This document shows, piece by piece, positions 1 to 12,720 of a stretch of 64,000 bases of DNA. The notes below the pieces were generated by a model. That model was given only the letters and a program-made list of their open reading frames with translations, ran no database searches and was not told the DNA's origin. The DNA is from Treponema sp. (GTDB lineage: Bacteria > Spirochaetota > Spirochaetia > Treponematales > Treponemataceae), in the NCBI RefSeq assembly GCF_051883275.1, contig NZ_JBJETK010000004.1, positions 13,270 through 77,269 on the forward strand, read 5' to 3'. A program made the translations under genes and the position numbers. Position 1 is the stretch's first letter, and each line of letters starts with the position of its first letter.

Positions 1-407
1 TCTGTAGAAGTATGCGTATTGCAATCTTTATACTCTTCTTTATGTTTTTCAACATAAGGTGAATAAATATCCTGAACAAGATCAACTTTTGTATGAATAG
101 TTGCCAGGCTTGCAGCATATCTGATTGCTTGAAATTCAAATGCTTCTTTTCTGTGTTCAATATCCTTTTTATCTCTTTTGATTTCTACAAGAACCAGATT
201 CCCATCATCATCAATGGCGGTAAGATCACTTCTTCCGTCTTCTTCATTTGTTACCTGCTGGCCGATAATAAGCATAGAATCTTCTTCATCACACAACATT
301 TCAATATTCTTTCGAAGTATTTCTTCTACATCTTTTTCAATCAACCCCAATTCCTTGAAAGAAGTCTGTTCTATCTTTGTTACATTGTTATTTTGTAAAA
401 TATACAT
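1..407 (-). CDS. NucS/EndoMS-like PD-(D/E)XK nuclease-domain protein (3' end runs off the window; not in the ORF track)
   Basis: Manual translation from ATG 407 (AGGAG RBS at 414-418): MYILQNNNVTKIEQTSFKELGLIEKDVEEILRKN...GQQVTNEEDGRSDLTAIDDDGNLVLVEIKRD...FEFQAIRYAA. The D-L-x-A-x-D...V-E-I-K and Q-x-x-x-Y motifs are typical of NucS-like nucleases. The frame is open to the window edge. Confidence 0.75.
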   Translation of the reverse strand, partial: MYILQNNNVTKIEQTSFKELGLIEKDVEEILRKNIEMLCDEEDSMLIIGQQVTNEEDGRSDLTAIDDDGNLVLVEIKRDKKDIEHRKEAFEFQAIRYAASLATIHTKVDLVQDIYSPYVEKHKEEYKDCNTHTST

Positions 408-422
408 TTGTTACTCCTGTTA

Positions 423-1478
423 TTAAACAATCTTTTTATTTTCTTGCAATTCGTTTTTATTTGAAATTATACCAAGAAAATCTAATAGTTTATATTCTTT
501 TTTATTTTTCCAATCACAAATAAATCCATCACATATGAAATCTAAATCTTTTTTAGGAAGTTTTCCAATTTTTAAAATGTACTTCACACTGCTATATAAA
601 CTAATCTCAGTGACTAAATAATTAGCCTCATTATAAAATATACAATAATGAGAAAAATCAGACATTTTTTCACAAATTGGATTATTTTGTCCCCCAAATT
701 GCACTAAGTGTTTTTCTTCAGATTTTCCAGTGACTATCCATTTTCTGAAATCATCAAATTCATTTTGCTGAACGAACTCTTCTCCTTTTAAAAATGCCAA
801 TACATTAAAAGCAATTTTTGCATAAACTCTGTGAGTATCATTATTCTCATATCCCGTATAATGTTGTGTTATTTTATTTATTTCAGAAATAAATCCAGAA
901 TCATTTTTTCTAAAATCAGATATAAATTTATTGATTACACATTTTAATTCATTTTTTTTAGGTCTGGTAAGATTATTTTTTGCAATATAAAAATGATTAT
1001 TGTAATATCCAATAATTAAATCTGTCTTGGGTATTATATTATTGTTTATATAGGTAAATTTTCCGTTAAACTTTTCCAATTCATTTATAAACTCTTTTTT
1101 ATTCATATTTAACTCACCGTGAATTTTCACATTTGTTTTTTTATCTTGTTTTAAAATATGAATTTGATTGATAATATTAGGTTGCCCCCTAAACGTATAT
1201 GAAAGTATAATATCACCATTTGTTTGTTTTCCAATAGTTACAGTTGGAGTTCTTGGTTTTTTTTTCTTTCCGTTTCTTGTACCTGGTCCTAATAACGCAC
1301 GATAAAGAGAAACTAAAGAACAATTCATGAAATTTATTTCTAATTTTGAGAACAAAGAATTAGCCTGATCTGATACAAGCCCTTTTGAAAGTTTTGTAAT
1401 TCCTCCGAGTCCTGCTGGGAAAATATGTTCTTTTTCTTTATAAGTTAATTCCGAGTTATTTTTTAAATATATACACAT
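423..1478 (-). CDS. HNH-type endonuclease-domain protein
   Basis: 351 aa. N-terminal MCIY...EHIFPAGLGG...VSDQANSLFS resembles the HNH_5-type motif (EHIxPxxLGG...CxxCN) with degenerate Cys positions. AT-rich. Confidence 0.65.
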   Translation of the reverse strand: MCIYLKNNSELTYKEKEHIFPAGLGGITKLSKGLVSDQANSLFSKLEINFMNCSLVSLYRALLGPGTRNGKKKKPRTPTVTIGKQTNGDIILSYTFRGQPNIINQIHILKQDKKTNVKIHGELNMNKKEFINELEKFNGKFTYINNNIIPKTDLIIGYYNNHFYIAKNNLTRPKKNELKCVINKFISDFRKNDSGFISEINKITQHYTGYENNDTHRVYAKIAFNVLAFLKGEEFVQQNEFDDFRKWIVTGKSEEKHLVQFGGQNNPICEKMSDFSHYCIFYNEANYLVTEISLYSSVKYILKIGKLPKKDLDFICDGFICDWKNKKEYKLLDFLGIISNKNELQENKKIV

Positions 1479-1483
1479 TCCTT

Positions 1484-1532
1484 TCTACCTTCCTCCCACA
1501 ATTTTGATTTCTTTGTCGGTGGCGGTGATTTG
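1484..1532 (-). repeat. Relic copy 3 of the Type IIG R-M gene 3' end, with an internal 45-bp deletion
   Basis: Reads QITATDKEIKIVGGR* versus QITATDKEINALVYKLYDLTAEEIAIVEGR* in the gene (4951-5044). The deletion joins two AAGAAAT microhomologies. Confidence 0.9.
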
Positions 1533-1537
1533 ATTTT

Positions 1538-1876
1538 TTATATTGCCAGTAAATCAGAAATTGCGGCAGAAATATTCAGCATTATGGCAGGGGATAGTTT
1601 TGATACTTTCTCTACAAGACAGGATTTATCAACTATTCCAATCTGTGGAGTAAGTGCAACAGAATCTTTTGAAAGTCCTGTATCAGATTTTTTTAGAAAA
1701 ATATTATCTTTATGTTCTGCAAGAAGAGTATTTGTTGTAAGGGGAACTACTACAGTTGTCATTATGCGGCTTGCATTGAAATTATCATTTTGAACGATAA
1801 CGGCAGGTCGTCTGCCTTGAGGCATACTGCCATAGGCAAGTCCAAAATCAACCCACCAGATTTCACCACGTGTCAT
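1538..1876 (-). CDS. mazF: MazF/PemK family mRNA interferase toxin
   Basis: MTRGEIWWVDFG...GRRPAVIVQND...VVVPLTT is the canonical PemK/MazF signature; 112 aa. Confidence 0.95.
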   Translation of the reverse strand: MTRGEIWWVDFGLAYGSMPQGRRPAVIVQNDNFNASRIMTTVVVPLTTNTLLAEHKDNIFLKKSDTGLSKDSVALTPQIGIVDKSCLVEKVSKLSPAIMLNISAAISDLLAI

Positions 1877-2117
1877 TCTTTACAGCCTCCCACATGGTAC
1901 GCATAGAAGAATGTGCGGCTGCAAGCTGTTCCTCCTGAGGAATTTTGTCATACACTGCGTTAATGCGGTCAACTTCTGCCTGATTTATATTAGAGCCATT
2001 TTGAACAGAACGTTTTTTTGCAAGCAGCAACTGAACTTTTTCGTAGATTCCTTCAAGAGATGGAATGTCAAGTTTATCGAGTTCAGAATTAAAATAGGCA
2101 TAAGCAAAATCACTCAT
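1863..2117 (-). CDS. Putative antitoxin of the MazF toxin
   Basis: 84 aa ORF directly upstream of mazF and overlapping its start, with a GGAGG RBS. The call is positional; no antitoxin fold was recognised. Confidence 0.7.
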   Translation of the reverse strand: MSDFAYAYFNSELDKLDIPSLEGIYEKVQLLLAKKRSVQNGSNINQAEVDRINAVYDKIPQEEQLAAAHSSMRTMWEAVKNDTW

Positions 2118-2180
2118 ACGGCTACCTCCATAACTTAAAATATATCACAATTTGATTGAAAAATCATCTGTTTTTCCCTT

Positions 2181-2288
2181 TCTACCTCCCTTCCACGACT
2201 TTGATTTCTTCTTCGGTCAAATCGTAGAGTTTGTACACTAAGGCGTTTATTTCTTTGTCGGTGGCGGTGATTTGCTGGAGCAGGTGTT
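2181..2288 (-). repeat. Relic copy 2 of the Type IIG R-M gene 3' end
   Basis: 2181-2274 matches 4951-5044 at 89/94 nt (QITATDKEINALVYKLYDLTEEEIKVVEGR*). 2275-2288 matches 5057-5070 at 12/14 after a 12-bp gap. Confidence 0.95.
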
Positions 2289-2322
2289 ATATACACCACG
2301 ATATTTATCGGCGCGAGTTTTA

Positions 2323-2460
2323 AAAAAACAACTTTTTCTGTATATAGTAAAAAATTGGCGCGAGTTTTGAAAAAACTCGGTAGCAAAGAGAATCTTTGCG
2401 GAGTTATCTCCCGAAACTCAATCGGCTTACGCCGAAATTTGAACTTTGGGAGGCTGGCAT
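2323..2460 (+). repeat. Duplicate of the promoter/leader region of the type I toxin (partner copy 3337-3515)
   Basis: 2323-2376 matches 3337-3390 (one mismatch) and 2403-2460 matches 3458-3515. This copy stops at GGCAT, inside the toxin ATG. Confidence 0.9.
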
Positions 2461-2463
2461 TTT

Positions 2464-3051
2464 TTAACCATTGGTAAAAAGACAGTATTCACTGCATTTT
2501 TCTTCAAGGAGTTTGAAATCACAACAAAAAGGAATAATACGTCCTGTTTTCATCTGCTTTTCATACAATCTACCGGCTTTTTGAATAATCAAATTCAATA
2601 TTTTTAAACAAAAAACAAATTCTTTATTCATAAGGTTTTTATAGTTTCGAGTTTCTTCTGAATCTGACTCTGAATGAATTAAATCTACTTTTGTATATAA
2701 TCCATCTTTTATAGGTATCATCTTTTTTAAGTCTATGATAGACAGCAGATGTTCAATTGTTCCATCAGACATTTCTTTGCAAACGGCTTTTCCAGAAACA
2801 GCAGATTTATCATATTTTTCATATATTAAAAAACGATCTGCTTCTATATTTTTCCAAGTCTTGTGTTTTTCCTTTGCGGATGAAAGAGGAATCACATATT
2901 GAATATTTTCCGAATTTAATAAAATACCAAGATACGGCTTATTATCATATCCAATCGATTTGTAATAGACTTCGGAACAAAATTCATGCAGGTATTTTAA
3001 GTAATCTTGATTTATATTTATGAAAGTGAGCTTGTCTTTTAAGGAAAACAT
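2464..3051 (-). CDS. toxN: Type III toxin-antitoxin toxin, ToxN/AbiQ family endoribonuclease
   Basis: L-x-F-x-x-I-x-x-DYLKYL...KPYLGILL...YVIPLSSAKEKHKTWKN...IIDLKKMIPI motif order fits ToxN/AbiQ. A promoter, short RNA and terminator lie upstream. Confidence 0.88.
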   Translation of the reverse strand: MFSLKDKLTFININQDYLKYLHEFCSEVYYKSIGYDNKPYLGILLNSENIQYVIPLSSAKEKHKTWKNIEADRFLIYEKYDKSAVSGKAVCKEMSDGTIEHLLSIIDLKKMIPIKDGLYTKVDLIHSESDSEETRNYKNLMNKEFVFCLKILNLIIQKAGRLYEKQMKTGRIIPFCCDFKLLEEKCSEYCLFTNG

Positions 3052-3062
3052 ATTACCGCCTG

Positions 3063-3097
3063 AAAAAAAATAAGGCCGCCTGAAACAACAGACGACC
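3063..3097 (-). terminator. Intrinsic terminator between the antitoxin RNA and toxN
   Basis: Minus strand GGTCGTCTG-ttgttt-CAGGCGGCC (9-bp stem with G-U pairs) followed by TTATTTTTTTT. Confidence 0.85.
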
Positions 3098-3155
3098 CTT
3101 CTTAAAGTTCATCTCTTTACGGATTCAAACCGCAGGTTAATGGAGACCTTCTGAA
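3063..3155 (-). ncRNA. Putative type III antitoxin RNA (ToxI-like), about 1.2 repeats of ~50 nt
   Basis: Lies between a TTGACC-17-TATATT promoter and the terminator. A partial repeat TTTCAGAAGGT / TTTAAGAAGGG is spaced 50 nt apart. Confidence 0.6.
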
Positions 3156-3159
3156 ATTA

Positions 3160-3188
3160 AATATAATGCAGAATATGAGTAAGGTCAA
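3160..3188 (-). promoter_or_regulatory. Sigma70-type promoter of the toxI-toxN unit
   Basis: TTGACC (3183-3188), 17 nt spacer, TATATT (3160-3165). Confidence 0.7.
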
Positions 3189-3240
3189 TATTTCGGGCGG
3201 CTTTTTGCTACATTCCACATTCGTTCCATTCCGCAAAAAA

Positions 3241-3321
3241 CAGGCTATTCGGGGTTCCGCTATCGCTTCATTCCTGCGCTGCGCTTCGGAACGGCTTCGC
3301 CGCCCCTACTATCCTTGCCGC
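3241..3321 (-). repeat. GC-rich REP/MITE-like dispersed element (homolog of 12911-13023)
   Basis: Its reverse complement GCGGCAAGGATAGTAGGGGCG...GAATGAAGCGATAGCGGAACCCCGAATAGCCTG aligns with GCGTTAGGGATTGTAGGAGCG...GAATGGAGCGATTAGCGGAACTCCGAAAAGCCCG. Confidence 0.75.
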
Positions 3322-3513
3322 AGGTACAATTTACTCAAAAAACACCTTTTTCTGTATATAGTAAAAAATTGGCGCGAGTTTTGAAAAAACGACTTTTCTA
3401 TATACACTATACTGTTTTATTGCTATACTATACTCATTGGAAATGCCTGAACAGGCGGTTATCTCCCGAAACTCAATCAGCTATTGCTGAAATTTGAACT
3501 TTGGGAGGCTGGC

Positions 3514-3615
3514 ATGACTTTAGAATATGTCTTGGTTGCTGTTGCAATTATCAGTTGCATCGCATCTGTCATAGGAACAGTTTATGCAGCTCTCACTTAC
3601 CATAAAAAGAAGTAG
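3514..3615 (+). CDS. 33-aa hydrophobic peptide, putative type I (holin-like/Fst-like) toxin; not in the ORF track
   Basis: MTLEYVLVAVAIISCIASVIGTVYAALTYHKKK*: one TM helix plus a Lys tail. GGGAGG RBS at 3503-3508 is paired with CTCCC (3463-3467) in a leader hairpin. Extended -10 TGCTATACT at 3421-3429. Confidence 0.75.
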   Translation: MTLEYVLVAVAIISCIASVIGTVYAALTYHKKK

Positions 3616-3618
3616 AGT

Positions 3619-3707
3619 AAAAAAATAGCCGCCAAAACTAAGTTTTCGAAGCTTTTTGGCGACTAATTCGCATAAGTGGAGATAACCCAAGTTCGGGCAT
3701 TTCCTTT
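3619..3707 (-). ncRNA. Putative antisense antitoxin RNA of the type I system
   Basis: Convergent promoter TTGACG(3737-3742)-17-TATCTT(3714-3719). Hairpin 3626-3665 is followed by a T run on the minus strand. Confidence 0.6.
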
Positions 3708-3762
3708 CTTTTTAAGATAGCACAGTTTTGAGATTTCGTCAAATTTGGAAAAGCAAAAACTA

Positions 3763-4029
3763 TTATTCAATATCAACACAAAAAATTGCAACCTTATTTA
3801 ACATTTGCATTGCATTTGATTCTAGTTCATTATGATATCTTCCTGAAGCATTATCCACACAATTAACCATTTCTAAATAGACGTTTCTATTATATCCAAA
3901 ATCTATCTTACTTGCCAAAAATCTTAATTTATTAATATATTTCCTGGCATTGTCTTTTGATGATACTGATAAAGCACAGTCAACCAGATTCTCAATTTCT
4001 TTAAATTCTTCTTTTGTAAACTTATTCAC
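3763..4029 (-). CDS. Hypothetical 88-aa helical protein
   Basis: ORF track; co-oriented with and 35 nt downstream of the RES-like gene; no motif recognised. Confidence 0.6.
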   Translation of the reverse strand: MNKFTKEEFKEIENLVDCALSVSSKDNARKYINKLRFLASKIDFGYNRNVYLEMVNCVDNASGRYHNELESNAMQMLNKVAIFCVDIE

Positions 4030-4064
4030 AATATTTCCTTGTAATCTCAGTAAAGTTTTATATA

Positions 4065-4946
4065 CTATTTTCTGAATTCAGTTTTAAGTTTAATCTCAGG
4101 AAAGTATAATCTTTGCTCCTCAGAACCACATTCATAAAACTTTGGTTTTGAATTTTCATCACCATCGCCTTTATAAAATCCACCAATATAAAAATTTTTT
4201 ACATTTGATTTATATTTGCAAACCCAAACTCCATATACCTTAAGATAATCATGAGCCTGCTTCTTTGTAAAACAAAAATTATAAAACCGAATATCTTTTG
4301 ATGATGGATATGCTATTGGAACTATCGGAAAAAGTTCCATAGTTCTTGCAATTGATTGAGTTAATTTATATAGATAATTCTTATTATCAGAAGTTAAATT
4401 CTTTCTAAGAATTCTAGATTGGAAATCCAAAATCAAATCATTATTTTTATGACTTTGACTATCATTATATTTAGGTTTTAACCCAACAGGTACATACTCA
4501 AAATCTTTAATTACTTCATAAACAATTATGAAAAATAAATCATCTCGTTTGATGCCACATTCCTTAATGCAAGTGGTATAATTTTCAGATGTATATAATA
4601 CTTGTTCATTTTCTATATTTATTCTTCCTGTTAAGCATTTTTCCAAAGGAGGTTCCCAAAAATATGATACATTTTGAATGTTTCTATAAAAGTAATCCTT
4701 TTCTTCAAATGTTTTTTTAGAATCTTTATTAAAAAAATTTACGACCCTATATAATTTTGTTTTTTGTGAACAAAGTAACTTTGGTATTAAAAAACTGCCT
4801 GCTTGAGAAAAAGATAAAGTTTTACAATACTCTGCACAAATTTCAGCTTCAGACATACTTTCAAAATCCAAGCATAAAAACTTATCAAGACGACTTTTTA
4901 TTTTTTCTGTTGGAATTTGCTCTAATCTTTCTTGAAATTTGTCCAT
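4065..4946 (-). CDS. RES-domain-like protein
   Basis: LYRVV...FWEPP..C.TGRINIENEQVLYTSE...TCIKE...IAYPSS gives the R/E/S motif order of the RES family. It starts 5 nt after the R-M stop. Confidence 0.7.
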   Translation of the reverse strand: MDKFQERLEQIPTEKIKSRLDKFLCLDFESMSEAEICAEYCKTLSFSQAGSFLIPKLLCSQKTKLYRVVNFFNKDSKKTFEEKDYFYRNIQNVSYFWEPPLEKCLTGRINIENEQVLYTSENYTTCIKECGIKRDDLFFIIVYEVIKDFEYVPVGLKPKYNDSQSHKNNDLILDFQSRILRKNLTSDNKNYLYKLTQSIARTMELFPIVPIAYPSSKDIRFYNFCFTKKQAHDYLKVYGVWVCKYKSNVKNFYIGGFYKGDGDENSKPKFYECGSEEQRLYFPEIKLKTEFRK

Positions 4947-4951
4947 ATCTT

Positions 4952-7900
4952 CTACCTCCCTTCCACGATTGCAATTTCTTCTGCGGTCAAATCGTAGAGT
5001 TTGTACACTAAGGCGTTTATTTCTTTGTCGGTGGCGGTGATTTGGGTTTGTAGTTCCTGGAGCTGGTTTTTTGTGTCTTCAAAAATTTCGAGCCATTCGA
5101 GTTTGGTTTTTGGGGTGACTTTCTGCTTGAGTTCTTTCATAAAACCGTCAAAGTCCAGGTCGTAGAAAGTTTCCAGTTTTGTACTGATTTTTTCCAGCGC
5201 AAATGTCTGTTTTACAACTTTTAGGAAGTTGCCGGATTTTTTCTGCAAGTTTTCGTTGAGTGCGAGCATTTTGTCTGTCAAATCATCTAATTCTTTATTG
5301 TTTTCAAAATCTGGTATCGGAATTTGTTCAAAGTATTGCGGTTTTACTTCGATGTAACCGCCGTTTCTAACTACACAAATAGACGTAAGGAACTTCCATA
5401 CTATTTTTGAATTTAGAATGCTGACTAAAGATTTGTTATCAGTTGGAAGCATACAGCAAGGGGCTGAAACAATAGTTTTTGTTTCATCGTAAGAGAATTT
5501 GTTACTGTTTTGCAGGTTTCCCCAAATTACTTTGTTTTTTTCAAATAATGATTGATAAGCACAATTCCTTAAATTATAAGGCGTTTTTCCCTTGTCATAT
5601 CTTTTTTCAAGTTTGTCATAAAATCCATTCAGATAGTTTTTAACTGCCTTATAATCATCTATGTTTATCACGTCAATATCATCATAACCGTTATGAACTG
5701 ATAAAATATATTTTTCGATTGGACGATTAATCCATTTGTTCAAATCTTTGCCCTCAAAAACTTTTTTTATCAATTCGGCAGATTTCGGATCTTCTTCTAT
5801 AAGCCTGTTTTTTGTCGCTTCGTCAATAAAAAACGCTTCATTTAATCCCGTTAAAACACCTCTATAACATTTTCCGTATTTTTCAGAAACAGTAGGAAAA
5901 GAAGTTATCTTATTCAGAATAGATTTTAATTCGTTACTTTCAAAAGACCAGCTTTCACTATTTAAATTGGCTTGAGAAACATTCACATCATTACAGGCAT
6001 TTATAACGATATTTCCATTCATTGAATTAGGAATTTTTTTGTAAATGAAAATGTTGCCTTCTTCAAATTTCTTTTTCAAAATCAAAATAATCGGGTAAGT
6101 TGTTGCACCAGAGAATATTTGAACTTCTGTAAAATCAACATATTTTTCAATAGTTGTTTTTGTCGCTATAAAATCCCTTAATGTTTTTCCCGAAGTGGTT
6201 TTATCAAAAGTATTTGAAATAAATCCAAAAATGCCGTTTTCATTCAACAGGCTTAAGCCTTTTTCATAAAAATATGAGAACAAATCACCGTCTGGATTAA
6301 ATACATTGAAATTGTTTTTATAAAAAGTTATGTCTTTTGACAATAAAAGTTCAGCCCTGACATACGGCGGATTTCCAATTACTACATCAAAACCGCCTTT
6401 TTCGAACACTTCGGGGAATTCTTTTTCCCAGACGAAGGCTTTTTCGCCGGCTACGGCGGGGTCGTCGATGAGGGAGTTTCCGCATTTTATTTTGTTGTTC
6501 AGGGTGGTGAGTTTGCGGTCTTTTTGGGCAGTGTGCAGCCACAGGCTCAGTTTTGTAATTTCTACGCTTTCTTCGTTGATGTCTACGCCGTAAAGGTTGT
6601 TTTCCAGAATAGAGTTATCAGAATATTCGGCAAACGCCATTGTGTCATTGTTGATTGTGCGCAGAAAATCAAAAACGCGCCGGTGCTCTGTCTTGAGCTG
6701 AGTGAGGGCGGCAGTAAGGAATGCTCCGCTTCCGCAGGCAGGGTCTAGAATTTTCAACGTAAAAAGCCATTCCTGATATTCGTTGAGGGCTTTGTTCAGC
6801 CTGTCCTTTTCCTTTTTTGTCAGGGCTTTTGAAATGGCTTCGTCGTTTATGTTCAGTTCGGCACGCTTTTGTTCGCAGAGTTTTCCGATGGTGTTTTCTA
6901 CAATATATTTTGTGATGTATTCCGGCGTGTAGAAAACTCCGTCTTTTTTGCGCTTTCCCACATTATTGTTTTCAACTTTTTCGCCTGATTTTTCCGCTTC
7001 GATTTCTTTTTGAATTTCCTCGATTTCGGTGAGCGAGTTTTCAAAAATGCGTCCGAGAATGTCTACGGAAATCTGACTTTCAAAATCGTAATCTGCCAGC
7101 CGTTTTGTATGAATAAAAAGAACGTCGTCGCCGATTTTCAGACTGTCAAGAATTTCGTCCTGTTTGAAAAGTCCGCCGTTGTAGGCAAAAATGTTTTTAG
7201 TGCTGTCACTTTCGCTTTTGTAGCCTTTGTCTATTCTGTCAAAATAAGTTTTAAAAACACTGTACAGTGGCTGAGCGTAACCCATTTCCTTTAATTTCTG
7301 ATAGTCGCCGATAATGCCCATTACGCTGTTTGCCGGCAAAAGTCCGCGGTCTTCGCAAAAGAGGATAAACAAAATCCTGTCCAGAAGTTTCTGCGTTTTT
7401 TTGAACAGTACGAGTTTGTCTATTTCCGGGTTGTTTTCTATCATATCTTCAAACAGAAGGCGCTTGAACGTTGAATAGTCCGCATAAAAATTGTCGGTAA
7501 TCTGTTTTTCTTCGCTCAAAGTTTCGTGCTTGATTTTTAGCGGAACGTCGTTTTTGAGCTGGGTCAGTTCCATAAGAAGATACAGAATGCAGAAGTCCTC
7601 ATAGTTCAGCGTGAAAAGGTTGAATTCTATAAATTCGATTTGCGTTTCCACATAAACACGAAGACGCTCGAAGTTGCAGACTATTACGTAGTTGCAGTTT
7701 TCGTGGTGGGATTTGTAGTCGAATGCCTGACGGGCAACTGTGTCAAGGTCGGTGGTGTCTGTGCCTTTAAGTTCGATTACGGCACGCACGGAATTTTCGT
7801 TGTTTTCTTCGCAGATTGCGCCGTCTGACTTTCGGGCATTGTTCTTGTTTTTGGTTTCGTTTTTGAGTTCGGTAAGAATGTTGTAATCCGGCTCCGGCTT

Positions 7901-8092
7901 TATCGTATAGTTCAAGACTGAACAGAATACGTCGCGGATAAAGCCTTCCTGATACTGTTCTTCTTTTATCGTGCGGATATTTGCGATTTTAGTTTCGTTT
8001 TTGTAGTTTGCGCAGAAGAGTTCGTATTTTTCGTGTAAGAGGTTTGCATCTATTTTTGAAAGGTATTTTTCGATTATTGATTTTTGAAACAT
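4952..8092 (-). CDS. Type IIG restriction-modification enzyme (Eco57I/TaqI-like: nuclease + N6-adenine MTase + TRD)
   Basis: 1046 aa. N-terminal SDGAI...VIELKG PD-(D/E)XK motif, motif I ILDPACGSGAFL, motif IV VIGNPPYVR, and a TaqI_C-like TRD near the C-terminus. Confidence 0.95.
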   Translation of the reverse strand: MFQKSIIEKYLSKIDANLLHEKYELFCANYKNETKIANIRTIKEEQYQEGFIRDVFCSVLNYTIKPEPDYNILTELKNETKNKNNARKSDGAICEENNENSVRAVIELKGTDTTDLDTVARQAFDYKSHHENCNYVIVCNFERLRVYVETQIEFIEFNLFTLNYEDFCILYLLMELTQLKNDVPLKIKHETLSEEKQITDNFYADYSTFKRLLFEDMIENNPEIDKLVLFKKTQKLLDRILFILFCEDRGLLPANSVMGIIGDYQKLKEMGYAQPLYSVFKTYFDRIDKGYKSESDSTKNIFAYNGGLFKQDEILDSLKIGDDVLFIHTKRLADYDFESQISVDILGRIFENSLTEIEEIQKEIEAEKSGEKVENNNVGKRKKDGVFYTPEYITKYIVENTIGKLCEQKRAELNINDEAISKALTKKEKDRLNKALNEYQEWLFTLKILDPACGSGAFLTAALTQLKTEHRRVFDFLRTINNDTMAFAEYSDNSILENNLYGVDINEESVEITKLSLWLHTAQKDRKLTTLNNKIKCGNSLIDDPAVAGEKAFVWEKEFPEVFEKGGFDVVIGNPPYVRAELLLSKDITFYKNNFNVFNPDGDLFSYFYEKGLSLLNENGIFGFISNTFDKTTSGKTLRDFIATKTTIEKYVDFTEVQIFSGATTYPIILILKKKFEEGNIFIYKKIPNSMNGNIVINACNDVNVSQANLNSESWSFESNELKSILNKITSFPTVSEKYGKCYRGVLTGLNEAFFIDEATKNRLIEEDPKSAELIKKVFEGKDLNKWINRPIEKYILSVHNGYDDIDVINIDDYKAVKNYLNGFYDKLEKRYDKGKTPYNLRNCAYQSLFEKNKVIWGNLQNSNKFSYDETKTIVSAPCCMLPTDNKSLVSILNSKIVWKFLTSICVVRNGGYIEVKPQYFEQIPIPDFENNKELDDLTDKMLALNENLQKKSGNFLKVVKQTFALEKISTKLETFYDLDFDGFMKELKQKVTPKTKLEWLEIFEDTKNQLQELQTQITATDKEINALVYKLYDLTAEEIAIVEGR

Positions 8093-8240
8093 TGTGGTTC
8101 TCCGTCTGGTGGTTTGCCTCTATTTTAGTTTAGCATTTTTGGGGAGAATTTTCTATAAAATTGTAAACCGGAAGAAAAAGCTGCAAGTTCGGGATGACAA
8201 AAACGTATTAGCATCCCCAAATGCACGGACAAAAAAATAT

Positions 8241-8389
8241 TTCATCAAGAACAAAATTTATTTTCATCTTGAGCAAAAATTATCTTTATCTTGAACAAAT
8301 ATTCAGAAAACAGGCTTTTTACGCCTTGCAAACAGTCTTTTTTCATGTTGTAAACAGTCTATTTACAGCCTGTAAACAGACTGTTTACA
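8241..8389. repeat. Array of seven near-palindromic sites at 22-bp spacing (three TTYATCWWGAnnAA, then four TGTAAACAG-N-CTGTTTACA-type)
   Basis: Site centres at about 8247.5, 8269.5, 8291.5, 8314, 8336, 8358 and 8380. The last site (8371-8389) is a perfect palindrome; the site at 8305-8323 is degenerate. Confidence 0.8.
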
Positions 8390-8567
8390 GATTTTTGCAA
8401 AAATACGAAGTCTAATTCTTTATTATATAATAACATAGAACGACATAAAAAACAATAAATTTTTATTTTTGCAAGGAATCTTTTTCATTTCCCTCTCTTC
8501 CCCTGCAATATTCAAACTCAACCGTATCTTGAAATCAAATGGAATTACATCTCTACCCAACTATAAT

Positions 8568-8594
8568 CGTCACCCCGAACTCGTTTCGGGGTCT
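8568..8594 (+). repeat. CGTC-tagged REP-like palindrome
   Basis: CGTC-ACCCCGAA-ctcgt-TTCGGGGT. A related half site (GTCATCCCGAACTTG, minus strand) lies at 8184-8198. Confidence 0.65.
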
Positions 8595-8793
8595 ATACGC
8601 TATATATAGTGCGGATTCTGAAACAAGATGTCATGATATAAATATCTGAAATGTGGTACTCTGATTCGACGGAATCAGAGAGTCGGCGGAAGGTTCTTCC
8701 GAACAGTGAAGAAGGCACCTAAAAAAAGTCTCTTACTTCGAAAACAAGATTGACCAAAAACGTTGTTAGTCGTTTTTATCCAATTCTATGAAA

Positions 8794-9273
8794 TTACCAT
8801 TGACTTTTATCTATCTGATATTTTTTAAAAATTCCTTTATTAGAATCCCATATAAGTGAAATTCCTTCCGTAACATTTTTTCCATTTTCACAGTAATAAA
8901 TTGTGTGAATATATCCTGTTTTTTCAGTTATATTAATTTTCCAACCATAAAACTGTTTTCCTTTTATATCTGATGAAAACAAAACAGTATTGTTTGTTTC
9001 AATTTTATTTTCAGAAAACTTTATGTAAGGATATACTTCATTTTTATTACTCGGTAATTCATAAATTATTGCTTTATCAAATATTTGTCTTTCAGAATCT
9101 TTATAATTAGCTGATAAATACATTTTTTTTCCACAAATACTAATTATTTCTGTTTTAAAATTATTATCTCCAAAATAGGACTCTAGATATGAAAGAGGTT
9201 CTTTTGAATGTATACGAAAGGCACAAAATACTAACAGAAAAATTGCTGTAAATGTCTTAAATCGCTTTTCCAT
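8794..9273 (-). CDS. Exported protein, putative immunity protein for the upstream NlpC/P60 domain
   Basis: 159 aa with a signal-peptide-like N-terminus (MEKRFKTFTAIFLLVFCAFRIHS). Starts 9 nt after the fusion gene stop. The function is inferred from position. Confidence 0.65.
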   Translation of the reverse strand: MEKRFKTFTAIFLLVFCAFRIHSKEPLSYLESYFGDNNFKTEIISICGKKMYLSANYKDSERQIFDKAIIYELPSNKNEVYPYIKFSENKIETNNTVLFSSDIKGKQFYGWKINITEKTGYIHTIYYCENGKNVTEGISLIWDSNKGIFKKYQIDKSQW

Positions 9274-9282
9274 AATTATCTC

Positions 9283-10197
9283 CTAAAATCGTAAGCTTCT
9301 GATTTCCCCAGTTTGAGGTAAAGGGGTTTCAATTAATTCTATAAGACCAGGATTGTCTAAGGTGTTTTCAGGTCCACCAGAGGCATTTACTCTGGCACCA
9401 TTTGAATTAACTATAGTTTGGACATGTACTATTCTGCCGTCTTCATCTCGCAAGAAACGTAAATCACCTCTTTGAAGAGGCCCATTAACAGGTTCTGTGT
9501 AATTAGCATAAATATCACTAGCTGTTTGATCCGGTATATTATTTCCCATTTGATTAAGACCGTATATTATTGAACCAGAACAATCCATTCCACCGTCTTC
9601 TGGTGAATTACCACCCCAAACATATGAACTTCCAACTAAGTTTTCCATAGTTTCTGCAAACTGCTCTGCAGATCCACTTAATTGTGAAGAATTATTATTA
9701 AAAGTATTATCTATAGAGTTTTCTGCTGCAATATTTTGGTTTGCAGGCAAAGTATATGCGGTAGTAGTATCATTGTCTGTTTCAATACCTTCATGTGCGA
9801 TTTCCATTCTTTCAAGTGCAAAGGTATTAGAACATGAACAATCAAGTTTTGGACCAATCCAGCGGCAAGGTATTGCCCGAAAGAAATTCCATCGTTTGAT
9901 TTCATTTCCTTCTGTATCTTTTAGGACAATCGAACCACTTTTACGTTCGACTTTTTCTGAAATTAAGAAATTCTTGAACCAGTTGAATAATTCATCGTTG
10001 TTGCTGATTCCCTTTTCTAGAACAAAATTTGGATAGCGAGTTCGCCCCTTAAAACGATGAACGCCGCCACCACCTTCTTCAATTTCAAATACTTCAGTTT
10101 CAGCTTCTAAGCCTTCACATTTTTGAAATCTTGCAGTTTCAATTCCGTCAAGTTCTATAAAAAATAAATATGATTTTAAATTAGAGTTATCTGCCAT
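9283..10197 (-). CDS. Fusion of a T4-gp19/Afp1-like contractile tail tube domain (aa ~1-140) and an NlpC/P60 peptidoglycan hydrolase domain (aa ~175-304)
   Basis: Tube motifs: FFIELDG..ARFQKCEGLEAETEVFEIEEGG...GRTRYPNFVLEKGI...LFNWF...RKSGSIVL.D..G.EI.RWNF.RA.PCRW.GP.L...ERMEIAHEG. NlpC/P60 motifs: LVGSSYVWGG...GMDCSG...GDL.F...IVHV...VNAS. Confidence 0.9.
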   Translation of the reverse strand: MADNSNLKSYLFFIELDGIETARFQKCEGLEAETEVFEIEEGGGGVHRFKGRTRYPNFVLEKGISNNDELFNWFKNFLISEKVERKSGSIVLKDTEGNEIKRWNFFRAIPCRWIGPKLDCSCSNTFALERMEIAHEGIETDNDTTTAYTLPANQNIAAENSIDNTFNNNSSQLSGSAEQFAETMENLVGSSYVWGGNSPEDGGMDCSGSIIYGLNQMGNNIPDQTASDIYANYTEPVNGPLQRGDLRFLRDEDGRIVHVQTIVNSNGARVNASGGPENTLDNPGLIELIETPLPQTGEIRSLRF

Positions 10198-10288
10198 AAT
10201 AATTCCATTCTATTATATTCCATATAAACAATGAAAATATATAAAAATAGTTACATTATTTGGAGAACTGCGCCCCAGTGCGGTCGTC

Positions 10289-10395
10289 CGACTAACTATG
10301 CAGCTAAACCGCAACGCAATTTACAGCCACACGAATCGCTCGCGTTTTTTCCTTAAGTTTAAATCCGTCAAAAACTGCTCCCGCATGAAGCGAAA
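10289..10395 (+). other. Possible truncated integron attC site
   Basis: Begins CGACTAAC, the exact complement of GTTAGTCG at 8765-8772. An internal hairpin is present, but the distal arm is missing and is replaced by an IS110 fragment. Confidence 0.45.
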
Positions 10396-10399
10396 AATG

Positions 10400-10550
10400 A
10401 AGGGCAATCAGAATGTAGTACCAGTGGCTTGCTGCAAGAAAATTGGCAGAGCTGATGTACACTCTGTTGAAAAATGGTATGTCATATGAAAAAAGAGCTT
10501 CCGTGTCAGCTAAACAGCTGGCAGCAGAAGTCCTTGCAATGGCCAGTTAA
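10400..10550 (+). pseudogene. IS110-family transposase C-terminal remnant
   Basis: Manual translation across a frameshift gives KGNQNVVPVA/ARKLAELMYTLLKNGMSYEKR...*, resembling the IS110 C-terminal A-V-A-R-K-L...L-K motif. Confidence 0.6.
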
Positions 10551-10697
10551 TTATTGGAATCAGGAGCTTCATGGTATTGACAAATATCATAGGAGTTCAG
10601 AATGACACCAGTTTTTAGATACTTTTTCCCATATTTTTCACTTGATTTTCACTGATTTTTCACATATATTAACTGTAAAAGCACTTTAAACAATGTT

Positions 10698-10976
10698 TTG
10701 GAGGACAATATGGCAAACATTACAATTACTTTGGACGATCAGGATAAAACTGCTATTTCTAATTTCTGCGAGCAGATTGGCATGACTGTTTCAGGGCTTT
10801 ACAATGTTTTTACAAAGCAGGTTATCCGCGAAGGACGCATTCCGTTTGAAATCAAAGTTGACCGCCCGAACCGCAAGACAATCAAAGCAATGCTCGAAGG
10901 CGACAAAATCGCAAACGACCCGAATGTCAAAGGATATACAAATGTTCACGAAATGATGGAGGCTTTGCTTAAATAA
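10698..10976 (+). CDS. dinJ: RelB/DinJ family antitoxin
   Basis: ITITLDDQDK...IGMTVSGLYNVFTKQVIREGRIPFEI...PNRKTIKAM.EG; overlaps the yafQ start. Confidence 0.9.
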   Translation: MEDNMANITITLDDQDKTAISNFCEQIGMTVSGLYNVFTKQVIREGRIPFEIKVDRPNRKTIKAMLEGDKIANDPNVKGYTNVHEMMEALLK

Positions 10977-11278
10977 TGGAATTTTCAAAGAAAAAAACAA
11001 AATATGAAATGCGTTTTACATCTGCAATGAAAAAAGACATGAAAAAAATTGTAAAACGCCATTATGATTTAAATCTTTTTGCAGAAACCGTTGAAAAACT
11101 CGCTAATGCCCAGCCTCTTGAAGAAAAATACTGCGACCATGCCCTTGAAGGAAACTGGAAAGGTCATCGTGAACTGCACATAAGACCTGACTGGCTGTTA
11201 ATTTATCAGATTAAAGACGATGTGCTTATCCTTGAACTTTCCAGAACCGGAACCCATTCAGATTTATTCGGAAAATAA
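10976..11278 (+). CDS. yafQ: YafQ family mRNA interferase toxin
   Basis: FTSAMKKDMK...PLEEKYCDHALEGNWKGHRELHIRPDWLLIY...L.L.RTGTHSDLF. Confidence 0.95.
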   Translation: MEFSKKKTKYEMRFTSAMKKDMKKIVKRHYDLNLFAETVEKLANAQPLEEKYCDHALEGNWKGHRELHIRPDWLLIYQIKDDVLILELSRTGTHSDLFGK

Positions 11279-11394
11279 AATCTCTCCAATACTCTGTAAG
11301 TTTATCACATTTTTTGAATGTTGTCTGTTTTTTGCATGTACTGCATTGAGGTAAAAAAATTGGCACTTGTTTATTTCTTGTATATCCTAAAAAA

Positions 11395-12255
11395 ATGAAT
11401 GTCAAATCTAAAAAACAGCTTGAGCAGGTTGATTTTCTCAATGCAATAAATGAACTTGGAATAGGCGGTGCTGACGTATGTGTTCACGCATCGGTAAAAT
11501 CGTTCGGGGCAAAGATTAACTGCGGAATAAAGGGAATCGTCTTGGCTTTTTTGTCGCAGGACTGCACTGTGATGGTTCCGGCATTTTGCGATGAATACGA
11601 AGCGCGGCCCGAAAAAAAATATATGCCCGAACGGAACGGAGCAGGGGACTATTCATTTTTTTTGAACAGGGACTATCCTGTAAAAAAAATCTTTGACGTA
11701 ACGAGCAGAGAAATTTCGCTTGAAGAAATGGGACTGTTTTCAAAAACCGTTCTGGATTTTGAAAATGCCGTCAGGGGAAACAACCCTTTAAACTCATTCG
11801 CCGCAGTCGGACGCAATGCAGAAAAACTTACGCTCTCGCAGACTGCCCGCGACGTTTATGCTCCGTTACGCAGACTGTGTGACGACGGCGGCTACGTCCT
11901 TTTAATCGGCGTCGGACTTGATTCTGCAACAATCATTCATTACGCTGAACAGCTCGCAGGCAGAACTCCGTTTGTCAGATGGGCATACGGCAAAGACCTT
12001 CGCGTAATTCCCGTATCAGCCGGAAGCTGCTCCGACGGCTTTGAAAACCTCGCTCCGTTCGTCAGCCCCATCGCCCGAAAAACAAAAGTTGCCGAAAGCG
12101 AATGGATATGCTTCAAAGCCTCCGACCTCGCCGCCCTCTGCCAGACCCAAATCACCCGAACCCCAAAAATAACCCATTGCCCCGACCCCACCTGCCCCCG
12201 CTGCAACGACGCCATCTCCGGCGGCCCAATCCTCCCACCAGACTTCTGGAAGTAA
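11395..12255 (+). CDS. AAC(3) family aminoglycoside N3-acetyltransferase homolog
   Basis: VCVHASVKSFG...TVMVPAF...RGNNPLNSFAAVG...VLLIGVGLDSATIIHYAE..A are AAC(3)/YokD family motifs. Confidence 0.85.
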   Translation: MNVKSKKQLEQVDFLNAINELGIGGADVCVHASVKSFGAKINCGIKGIVLAFLSQDCTVMVPAFCDEYEARPEKKYMPERNGAGDYSFFLNRDYPVKKIFDVTSREISLEEMGLFSKTVLDFENAVRGNNPLNSFAAVGRNAEKLTLSQTARDVYAPLRRLCDDGGYVLLIGVGLDSATIIHYAEQLAGRTPFVRWAYGKDLRVIPVSAGSCSDGFENLAPFVSPIARKTKVAESEWICFKASDLAALCQTQITRTPKITHCPDPTCPRCNDAISGGPILPPDFWK

Positions 12256-12260
12256 TTTTT

Positions 12261-12509
12261 TTGTCGCATCTCTGTCAAAAAGTATTTGGGAATAAACGGA
12301 AAACCAAAACTGCGCGGCATTTTCCAAAAAAGAGCGGATAAATCAAGATAAAATGCTATAAATTCGGGATGAATTTGAAAACAAAACGGGATAAAAAAAG
12401 GAGCCTTGCGCGCCTGAAAAGCACCGTAACTCCTGAAACAATGTATTGATATTTGCTTCTATAATATATCAGATTTTTCTTTATTAGGCAAATGATTTTC
12501 GGCCGTTTT
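12261..12509 (+). repeat. ~250-bp direct repeat, copy a (partner 15367-15768)
   Basis: Near-identical from TTGTCGCATCTCTGTC to AAATGATTTTCG. Copy b has an extra 150 bp. Confidence 0.95.
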
Positions 12510-12720
12510 TTACTAAACGCAAAATATAATTTCCCTTCCAGACCGTTTAAAAAATACAGGTTAATAACGATTTCGATAACTTTGGAATAAGATTCTAACA
12601 TTAAAACTGGGAAATCTATATGGAAAGGCGACTGACCAAAAAGACCGCCTTAATTTTTATCCTAAATCACTTTTTTGAGAATTACCTGGTATAGAAACTT
12701 TACCAGTCTGTTCGTCTGGC

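Follow-up and report, generated by a model that had tools for sequence, protein, structure and literature searches.

In hok/Sok (plasmid R1) and AapA1/IsoA1 (Helicobacter pylori), pairing between the 5' and 3' ends of the toxin mRNA locks the full-length message in an inert form. Antitoxin RNAs that overlap their toxin mRNA on the 3' side are placed in Gram-positive families in the paper describing T1TAdb, which counts 24 type I families and is silent on spirochaetes (PMC8594479). For txpA/RatA of Bacillus subtilis, decay of the toxin-antitoxin RNA duplex is RNase III-dependent (PMC3531473), and in bsrG/SR4 of the same species the antitoxin binds at the 3' end of the mRNA, where it promotes decay and extends the SD-sequestering helix from 4 to 8 bp (PMC3834814). 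Spirochaetes likewise go without mention in Fozo et al. (2010), and nothing relevant was found in the literature searched for type I systems in Treponema or spirochaetes, in agreement with the first-pass annotation, which knew of no characterised class of this kind in treponemes.

The locus described here lies in a 64,000-nt stretch of the Treponema sp. contig NZ_JBJETK010000004.1 (hereafter the window), to whose positions all coordinates refer unless prefixed with C. It is a stand-alone, compact, convergent two-promoter unit of 340 bp (3401-3742), and we consider it probable, from its sequence and those of its relatives, that it is an intact type I toxin-antitoxin module of an undescribed spirochaete family, in which a 3' box of the toxin mRNA would partly unlock the SD and an antisense RNA would re-lock it. 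A complete type I system had been proposed in the first-pass annotation, whose coordinates and motifs all proved correct, and the proposal is supported: the sequence-level hallmarks are all present and are conserved across a large family. The features are the following.

3401..3429, plus strand: toxin-mRNA promoter from a consensus scan, with -35-like TATACA (3401-3406), 17 nt and -10 TATACT (3424-3429)
3439..3466, plus strand: 5' box GGAAATGCCTGAACAGGCGGTTATCTCC (GGAAATGCCTGAAC..GGTTATCTCC), the 5' arm of the long-distance helix, containing the leader anti-SD CUCCC
3463..3508, plus strand: leader hairpin, with the anti-SD CUCCC (3463-3467) against the SD GGGAGG (3503-3508)
3514..3615, plus strand: toxin ORF, with ATG at 3514, 33 codons (3514-3612) and stop TAG (3613-3615)
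3590..3594, plus strand: ORF-internal CUCUC, a candidate second anti-SD from its RNAalifold pairing with the SD and from codon usage
3619..3665, minus strand: intrinsic terminator of the antisense RNA, a hairpin (3665-3626) followed by a U-run (A-run 3619-3625 on the plus strand)
3678..3704, plus strand: 3' box GGAGATAACCCAAGTTCGGGCATTTCC (GGAGATAACC..GTTCGGGCATTTCC), the 3' arm of the long-distance helix, carrying the SD-like GGAGA
3705..3713, plus strand: U-rich run TTTCTTTTT, immediately 3' of the 3' arm, doubling as the -10-to-start spacer of the antisense promoter
3714..3742, minus strand: antisense-RNA promoter, with TTGACG (3742-3737), 17 nt, TATCTT (3719-3714) and an extended -10 TG, pointing into the 3' box
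3619..3708, minus strand: predicted antitoxin RNA of about 88-90 nt, comprising a 5' stem-loop, UCUCCAC and the terminator, complementary throughout to the 3' UTR of the toxin mRNA

The toxin-mRNA promoter has an extended -10 (TG at 3421-3422) and a predicted transcription start at about 3436-3438; in nearly all of 57 relatives, TTTACA/TATACA-17-TATAAT stands at fixed spacing 9-10 nt ahead of the GGAA box. The convergent TTGACG-17-TATCTT promoter that had been noticed on the minus strand (3742-3714) is also conserved: almost all of 57 relatives have TTGAC(G)-17-TATATT, at one and the same distance from the 3' box. The SD had been described as locked by CTCCC in a long hairpin, and this is the leader hairpin listed above, with TCAGC (3477-3481) and GCTGA (3486-3490) as its inner stem. 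After the toxin stop, an A-run leads into a GC-rich hairpin of 40 nt (3626-3665). No local terminator hairpin precedes the U-rich run at 3705-3713, at whose position relatives keep TTTnTTTT; we infer that this run is the probable 3' end of the toxin mRNA, a plus-strand transcript predicted to span about 275 nt (about 3437-3713).

Folding of the 277-nt RNA gives an MFE of -95.5 kcal/mol (z = -6.3) in which the 5' box is paired with the 3' box, and the duplex between 3439-3466 and 3678-3704 amounts to -40.6 kcal/mol, bearing out the complementarity that had been pointed out between the mRNA 5' end and this downstream segment. This MFE structure also contains the CUCCC-GGGA pairing alongside the outer 5'-3' helix, and the RNAalifold consensus of 64 sequences contains the same helix. 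The underlying alignment comprises 64 homologous loci in 377 columns, at a mean column identity of 55%. Family members were retrieved with a search pattern in which most of the 3' box is fixed and with a regular expression for the 5' box, so that both boxes are invariant partly because of how the members were chosen, and only the free positions count as covariation. At such pattern-free positions, three pairs of the 5'-3' helix covary (AU 40, GU 15, GC 9 and AC 0; CG 34, UA 16, UG 14 and CA 0; GC 32, GU 16, AU 15 and AC 1), and compensatory changes occur at three more. The observed pairing and covariation were reached by none of 1000 column shuffles, a test that overstates significance because the sequences are related, and both collapse when the helix partner is slid by 1-3 columns. 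Cognate leader/3' box duplexes have an energy of -38.5 kcal/mol, compared with -32.4 for non-cognate and -14.0 for shuffled ones. The plus-strand duplex beats its minus-strand equivalent in 57 of the 64 loci, and leader/3' box mismatches are of the G·U type 106 times and of the A·C type 34 times; because of this strand preference and mismatch bias, the 5'-3' helix reads as a feature of the plus-strand RNA, and the mRNA must therefore read through the post-stop hairpin to the 3' box. The inner stem of the leader shows compensatory double changes at 5 of its 5 pairs across the 64 loci. Covariation and the strand asymmetry of G·U pairs together support a plus-strand 5'-3' helix, a leader hairpin and a minus-strand terminator, and the retention of the arrangement with covariation in 64 aligned homologues confirms, within this comparison, that it is not due to chance.

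The RNA contains two pyrimidine boxes (UCUCC in the leader and CUYUCY inside the ORF) and three purine boxes (GGGAGG of the SD, AGAG after the stop and GGAGA in the 3' box). In relatives, the ORF-internal box is formed by the CUY UCY codons of an LSY motif. Leu is encoded there by CTC or CTT only (61/61), while TTA, TTG, CTA and CTG make up 141 of the 207 Leu codons elsewhere in the ORFs; Ser is encoded by TCT or TCC in 55 of 57 cases and by TCA in the other two, while AGT or TCG mostly serve elsewhere. To judge from this codon usage, the ORF-internal anti-SD box is real at the RNA level. Partition-function folding of 63 homologues was carried out on the free full-length RNA and on the RNA with its 3' UTR masked, which corresponds to the antisense-bound form. 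In the free RNA, the leader anti-SD is found on the 3' box with a mean probability of 0.66, and the SD is held by the ORF-internal box (0.40) or by the leader (0.32) and is unpaired with a mean probability of 0.16; with the 3' UTR masked, the leader anti-SD is found on the SD (0.92). Opening the ribosome-binding site costs 9.9 kcal/mol in the free RNA and 14.0 kcal/mol in the masked or nascent RNA; in 61 of 63 loci the free form is the cheaper one to open. In these folds the 3' box is predicted to compete with the SD for the leader anti-SD, with masking tightening the SD lock by about 4 kcal/mol, which suggests that the 5'-3' helix loosens the SD and does not lock it.

Because of these folding results we favour a partial unlocking of the SD by the 3' box and its re-locking by the antisense RNA. 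In the nascent mRNA, the leader hairpin would hold the SD shut; the 3' box, once transcribed, would compete for the leader, since its GGAGA mimics the SD, and so make the ribosome-binding site cheaper to open. The antisense RNA would mask the 3' box, upon which the leader would re-close the SD, and the resulting mRNA/antisense duplex of 88 bp would be a likely substrate for RNase III, an enzyme that the genome encodes. As the antisense RNA would both re-lock the SD and form this duplex, the peptide would be made only upon loss of the antisense RNA. The switch calls for caution, in that none of the predicted folds leaves the SD fully free: it is mostly paired even in the free full-length RNA and can be taken over by the ORF-internal CUCUC. 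We put forward only tentatively the broader idea that the logic of hok is reversed here, i.e., that a 3'-end fold-back carrying the SD-mimic GGAGA switches the toxin mRNA on, that the antitoxin RNA would be an anti-activator that hides the 3' arm and also makes an RNase III substrate, and that the 5'-3' helix with the U-run may act as a terminator of the mRNA or a protector of its 3' end.

It seems unlikely, in turn, that the module follows hok and AapA1 as they stand, with the 5'-3' helix as a stable, untranslatable storage form that 3' trimming activates and an antisense RNA that hits the processed form or triggers decay. Such a locking role of 5'-3' pairing is established in hok and AapA1, and it would fit both the low unpaired probability of the SD in the predicted full-length ensemble and the coexistence of the CUCCC-GGGA pairing with the outer helix in the MFE of the 277-nt RNA. 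However, removal or masking of the 3' part tightens the SD lock in 61 of the 63 homologues, it is the 5' leader that contains the anti-SD, the 3' box having an SD mimic and not an anti-SD, and the antisense RNA targets the 3' UTR, unlike Sok and IsoA1, which target the 5' region. Unlocking by the 3' box is the reading with which we continue.

The peptide, described in the first reading as a 33-residue TM peptide with a KKK tail, is indeed of this kind: the ORF at 3514-3615 encodes MTLEYVLVAVAIISCIASVIGTVYAALTYHKKK, 33 aa with one predicted TM helix followed by HKKK, whose Kyte-Doolittle means over 19 residues are 2.1-2.5. Its conservation had been named as a check: 62 of the 64 aligned loci retain an ORF of 25-35 aa, and the 58 distinct peptides encoded follow a common plan, in which they begin with MT, have an acidic residue at position 4-5 and then a hydrophobic run of about 20 residues, and close with LSY[LF]K and a tail of K/R/D/E. 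The pairwise divergence of the family ORFs by codon position (0.42/0.24/0.54) marks the ORF, as far as such divergence can tell, as a translated frame under purifying selection with constrained hydrophobicity. A profile search matched 116 representative protein clusters, with no names among the 10 checked; the window peptide itself is absent from the protein collection and was never called as a gene. It matches none of the curated toxin families of Pfam and NCBIfam, with only insignificant small-membrane-protein noise in the NCBIfam scan. The Pfam family Hol_Tox (PF16935) is matched by the MTIYEIISLAI subtype; of 36 family peptides 5 match, of which one passes the cut-off (26.1 against 23.3 bits), and the window peptide does not match it at E up to 1. 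From its type, the peptide would be a membrane-damaging toxin.

Of 36 genomes of the same genus, 13 contain homologues of the 322-nt locus, with about 70% identity, and the 24 examined from other genera of the order contain none. The exact 3'-box pattern occurs in at least 119 DNA stretches among contigs sampled at one genome per species, almost all of them titled as Treponema, Treponemataceae or Spirochaetia MAGs from the gut of horse, ruminants, chicken and human; by this pattern, over 100 loci share the architecture, and Treponema MAGs from gut or rumen account for nearly all of them. In a phylum-wide sample of 301 genomes, the pattern is present in 8 genomes of 3 genera and a reversed control pattern in none. 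Matches were also obtained on short 'cleanbin' MAG contigs titled Collinsella, Anaerovoracaceae, Parabacteroides distasonis and Lachnospiraceae (L037, L062, L074 and L092), one of which (L074) carries a complete module with a Treponema-type peptide; these titles probably reflect mis-binning and not transfer. By the covariance model of the antisense-RNA gene described below, genomes contain up to 14 copies, often in arrays with a period of about 380-500 bp. Type I loci typically occur in several copies and in tandem (PMC2887945). An example of such an array is found in Treponema sp. MAG007 (JAEDCN010000003.1, L110:38-2340), in which four complete modules follow one another within 2.3 kb, the first with a 26-aa peptide of the MTKYE subtype and the next three with 33-aa peptides of the MTADF subtype; peptide subtypes therefore appear to be exchanged on one RNA scaffold. 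Genes flanking the family loci are heterogeneous, mostly ordinary chromosomal ones, with no common neighbour.

These flanks, and the precedent of YhzE-2 among predicted type I 'toxins' that proved non-toxic (PMC2887945), would suit a small membrane protein with a physiological, non-toxic role under antisense control and with no part in addiction or defence. We give little credence to this reading, against which stand the patchy multicopy distribution with its tandem arrays and many remnants, the redundant translational locks and the resemblance of one peptide subtype to the TxpA/Hol_Tox family. The locus is taken in the following as a toxin-antitoxin module.

The antisense RNA had been thought to be defined, at about 90 nt, by a hairpin shared between the two convergent transcripts. 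The length stands, at a predicted 88-90 nt, but the hairpin appears to terminate the antisense RNA only. Its U-tract scores a median of 6/8 on the minus strand and 3/8 on the plus strand, and the region folds better on the minus strand in all 56 loci (-15.3 against -11.0 kcal/mol). Variants of the hairpin (GCCGUC, GCCGCU, GUCGCC and GCUGCC) form G·U pairs in the minus strand and C·A mismatches in the mRNA. A par-like reading as a bidirectional terminator was rejected because the U-tract and the G·U pairs favour a single strand. The helix favours the plus strand, the terminator the minus strand, and these two opposite asymmetries are the best available stand-in for transcript evidence. The predicted antisense RNA runs to its own terminator, a little beyond the toxin stop, and is therefore complementary to the whole 3' UTR, including the 3' box; the locus thus has, at the sequence level, a separate antisense gene with its own promoter, terminator and complementarity to the toxin mRNA. 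Covariance modelling had been suggested as a further check of the locus, and a model of the antisense-RNA gene (R1; 92 positions, 18 pairs) matches in 33 of 150 genomes of the family-level sample. A further, weak covariance-model match at C20:25799-25887 shows no features of the module, neither 3' box nor ORF, and is apparently spurious.

Towards its 5' end the antisense RNA reproduces the mRNA leader almost letter for letter, UCUCC included. This likeness, together with the short T-run that follows the hairpin on the plus strand in some relatives, could be taken to mean that the mRNA ends at the post-stop hairpin and that the antisense RNA acts in trans on the SD by means of a 5' domain that resembles the leader, in the manner of SprA1AS and SprA1; we find this quite improbable, as the covariation and G·U bias between leader and 3' box require both on one plus-strand RNA, the plus-strand U-tract is poor and the hairpin C·A-mismatched there, and the complementarity between antisense RNA and SD region, read from the sequence, is only about 5 bp. 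We thus keep to an mRNA that extends through the hairpin to the 3' box.

The first-pass annotation had counted two covarying copies of the leader hairpin. The compensatory change between them is genuine (TCGGC/GCCGA in one, TCAGC/GCTGA in the other), but the second copy is a remnant and not a second system: the segment at 2403-2460, 91% identical to 3458-3515, holds the leader hairpin only, with the TCGGC/GCCGA inner stem, and ends at GGCAT, abutting the toxN stop, without promoter, 5' box or ORF. By its content it is a dead fragment of a second module. Three more remnants, all of them 3' halves, lie on the contig upstream of the window (C4:8599-8682, 10020-10301 and 12440-12673), and the genome would thus contain a single intact module plus four scars, within 8.5 kb of a defence island. 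Two of these three carry an insertion of 95 nt, which in both toxin-less 3' halves sits exactly between the 3' box and the antisense -10. The insertion (95-97 nt, 98% identical between copies) is found at L002:1647-1743 and L029:1526-1622 (equal to G000:C4:10166-10262 and 12535-12631) and contains two inverted repeats (GGTCAAGGC..GCCTTGACT and GTGTGTATGA..TCATACACAC); a third, partial copy lies at C15:12700-12757. One 3' half has a 3' box identical to that of the intact module at 29 of 29 positions, so that an orphan, 5'-extended antitoxin RNA transcribed from it could cross-react.

Type II and type III systems had been noted beside the locus, and the neighbours are in fact a PemK/MazF type II toxin with its partner (1538-2117) and a ToxN type III toxin. 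The toxN gene is a minus-strand ORF of 195 aa at 2464-3099 (PF13958, E = 2.9e-43), with a terminator-like hairpin just upstream (3099-3072), where a ToxI-type RNA would end. A 54-nt direct repeat (2323-2376 and 3337-3390, 98% identical) brackets the toxN cassette and the dead leader fragment and resembles a scar left by a cassette junction or a duplication; a third occurrence of its core, TTGGCGCGAGTTTTGAAAAAAC, lies at 2307-2336. On the other side, an MmeI/Eco57I-type restriction-modification gene occupies 4952-8092, and its last 95 nt or so (4950-5044) recur twice downstream, at 1480-1540 and 2180-2274, with identities of 95% and about 85%. These recurring gene ends separate blocks of defence genes, PemK/MazF with its partner and a weak Shedu-like match (3-407). 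Upstream of the restriction-modification gene, at 8327-8389, lies a dense palindromic array with 31-nt arms at 81%, a 20-nt pair at 95% and TGTAAACAG units.

A reading of the inverted repeat as the termini of a miniature mobile element (MITE), with incidental RNA features, such as the multiple copies, variable contexts, fragments at cassette junctions and 28-nt inverted repeats might suggest, is scarcely credible and was rejected, because conservation runs about 40 nt past both repeat arms and into the promoters, mismatches are strand-biased (G·U 106 against A·C 34) and transposases are not enriched near family loci in the flank analysis, and the ORF is moreover conserved as coding and the plasmid and phage collections contain no match to the module.

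As a type I module, the locus would add a large multicopy family from gut and rumen Treponema, hosts in which the RNA biology customary for model organisms is lacking. With covariation in four helices and constraints on synonymous codons, the 64 aligned variants provide an unusually rich comparative signal, so that the RNA switch can be dissected by design, and the module offers a testable case of remote SD control from a 3' UTR. Modules and remnants at the junctions of defence cassettes could be stabilisers of such islands or scars of their recombination.

No known type I antitoxin family, RatA included, was found in a scan of window positions 1-12000 against Rfam 15 at E up to 1, which returned two irrelevant weak matches. 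The systems first named as models were hok/Sok, AapA1/IsoA1 and Fst. The module has the 5'-3' fold-back in common with hok and AapA1; the closest systems are others, txpA/RatA and bsrG/SR4. With hok/Sok and AapA1/IsoA1 the module shares the pairing of the extreme 5' end of the mRNA with its 3' end, several mutually exclusive SD-masking elements and co-transcriptional, metastable hairpins that keep the SD closed. The fold-back is an analogy of device and not evidence of homology. The antisense RNA of hok/Sok and AapA1/IsoA1 targets the 5' part of the mRNA, whereas in the Treponema module it is directed against the 3' arm of the helix. The fold-back helix that keeps hok and AapA1 mRNAs inert until 3' trimming is here predicted to loosen the SD. 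There is no match to the Hok family of Pfam, and the antisense promoter lies 3' of the ORF and not against a 5' leader or mok. Fst/RNAI-RNAII (par of pAD1) and SprA1/SprA1AS resemble the module in convergent transcription across a post-ORF hairpin and in a small TM peptide with a charged tail. In par, however, the repeats are direct, so that its two RNAs have complementary 5' ends, and the terminator is bidirectional; in the Treponema module the repeats are inverted, so that the two RNA 5' ends are alike, and the terminator serves one strand.

The likeness to txpA/RatA, with its relative EF3263 in Enterococcus, lies in a convergent antisense RNA of about 100 nt over the 3' end of the mRNA of a small TM toxin: as in TxpA/RatA, the predicted antisense RNA (3708-3619) lies wholly inside the predicted 3' UTR. 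Loop-loop complementarity is available for initiation, and one peptide subtype of the Treponema family weakly matches Hol_Tox, which the window peptide does not match. Unlike in txpA/RatA, the antisense RNA of the Treponema family stops before the ORF and the host is a spirochaete and not a Firmicute; the family peptides (25-35 aa) are also shorter than TxpA, which has about 59 residues, and we know of no 5'-3' helix or SD-mimic 3' box for txpA. The likeness to bsrG/SR4 is the rise in the cost of opening the RBS, by about 4 kcal/mol, that is predicted upon masking of the 3' UTR. In contrast to bsrG/SR4, this effect would come from release of the leader anti-SD from a long-distance helix and not from a local rearrangement, and the two share no sequence similarity. 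By every feature that can be tested at this level, the module reads as type I, and by defining features it falls outside hok, AapA, Fst and, for the peptide of the window, TxpA. It is closer to txpA/RatA and bsrG/SR4, by organisation and weakly by peptide, than to hok/Sok, AapA1/IsoA1 or Fst, and it appears to combine devices that have not been reported together, a 3'-overlapping antitoxin and a 5'-3' fold-back like that of hok and AapA1.
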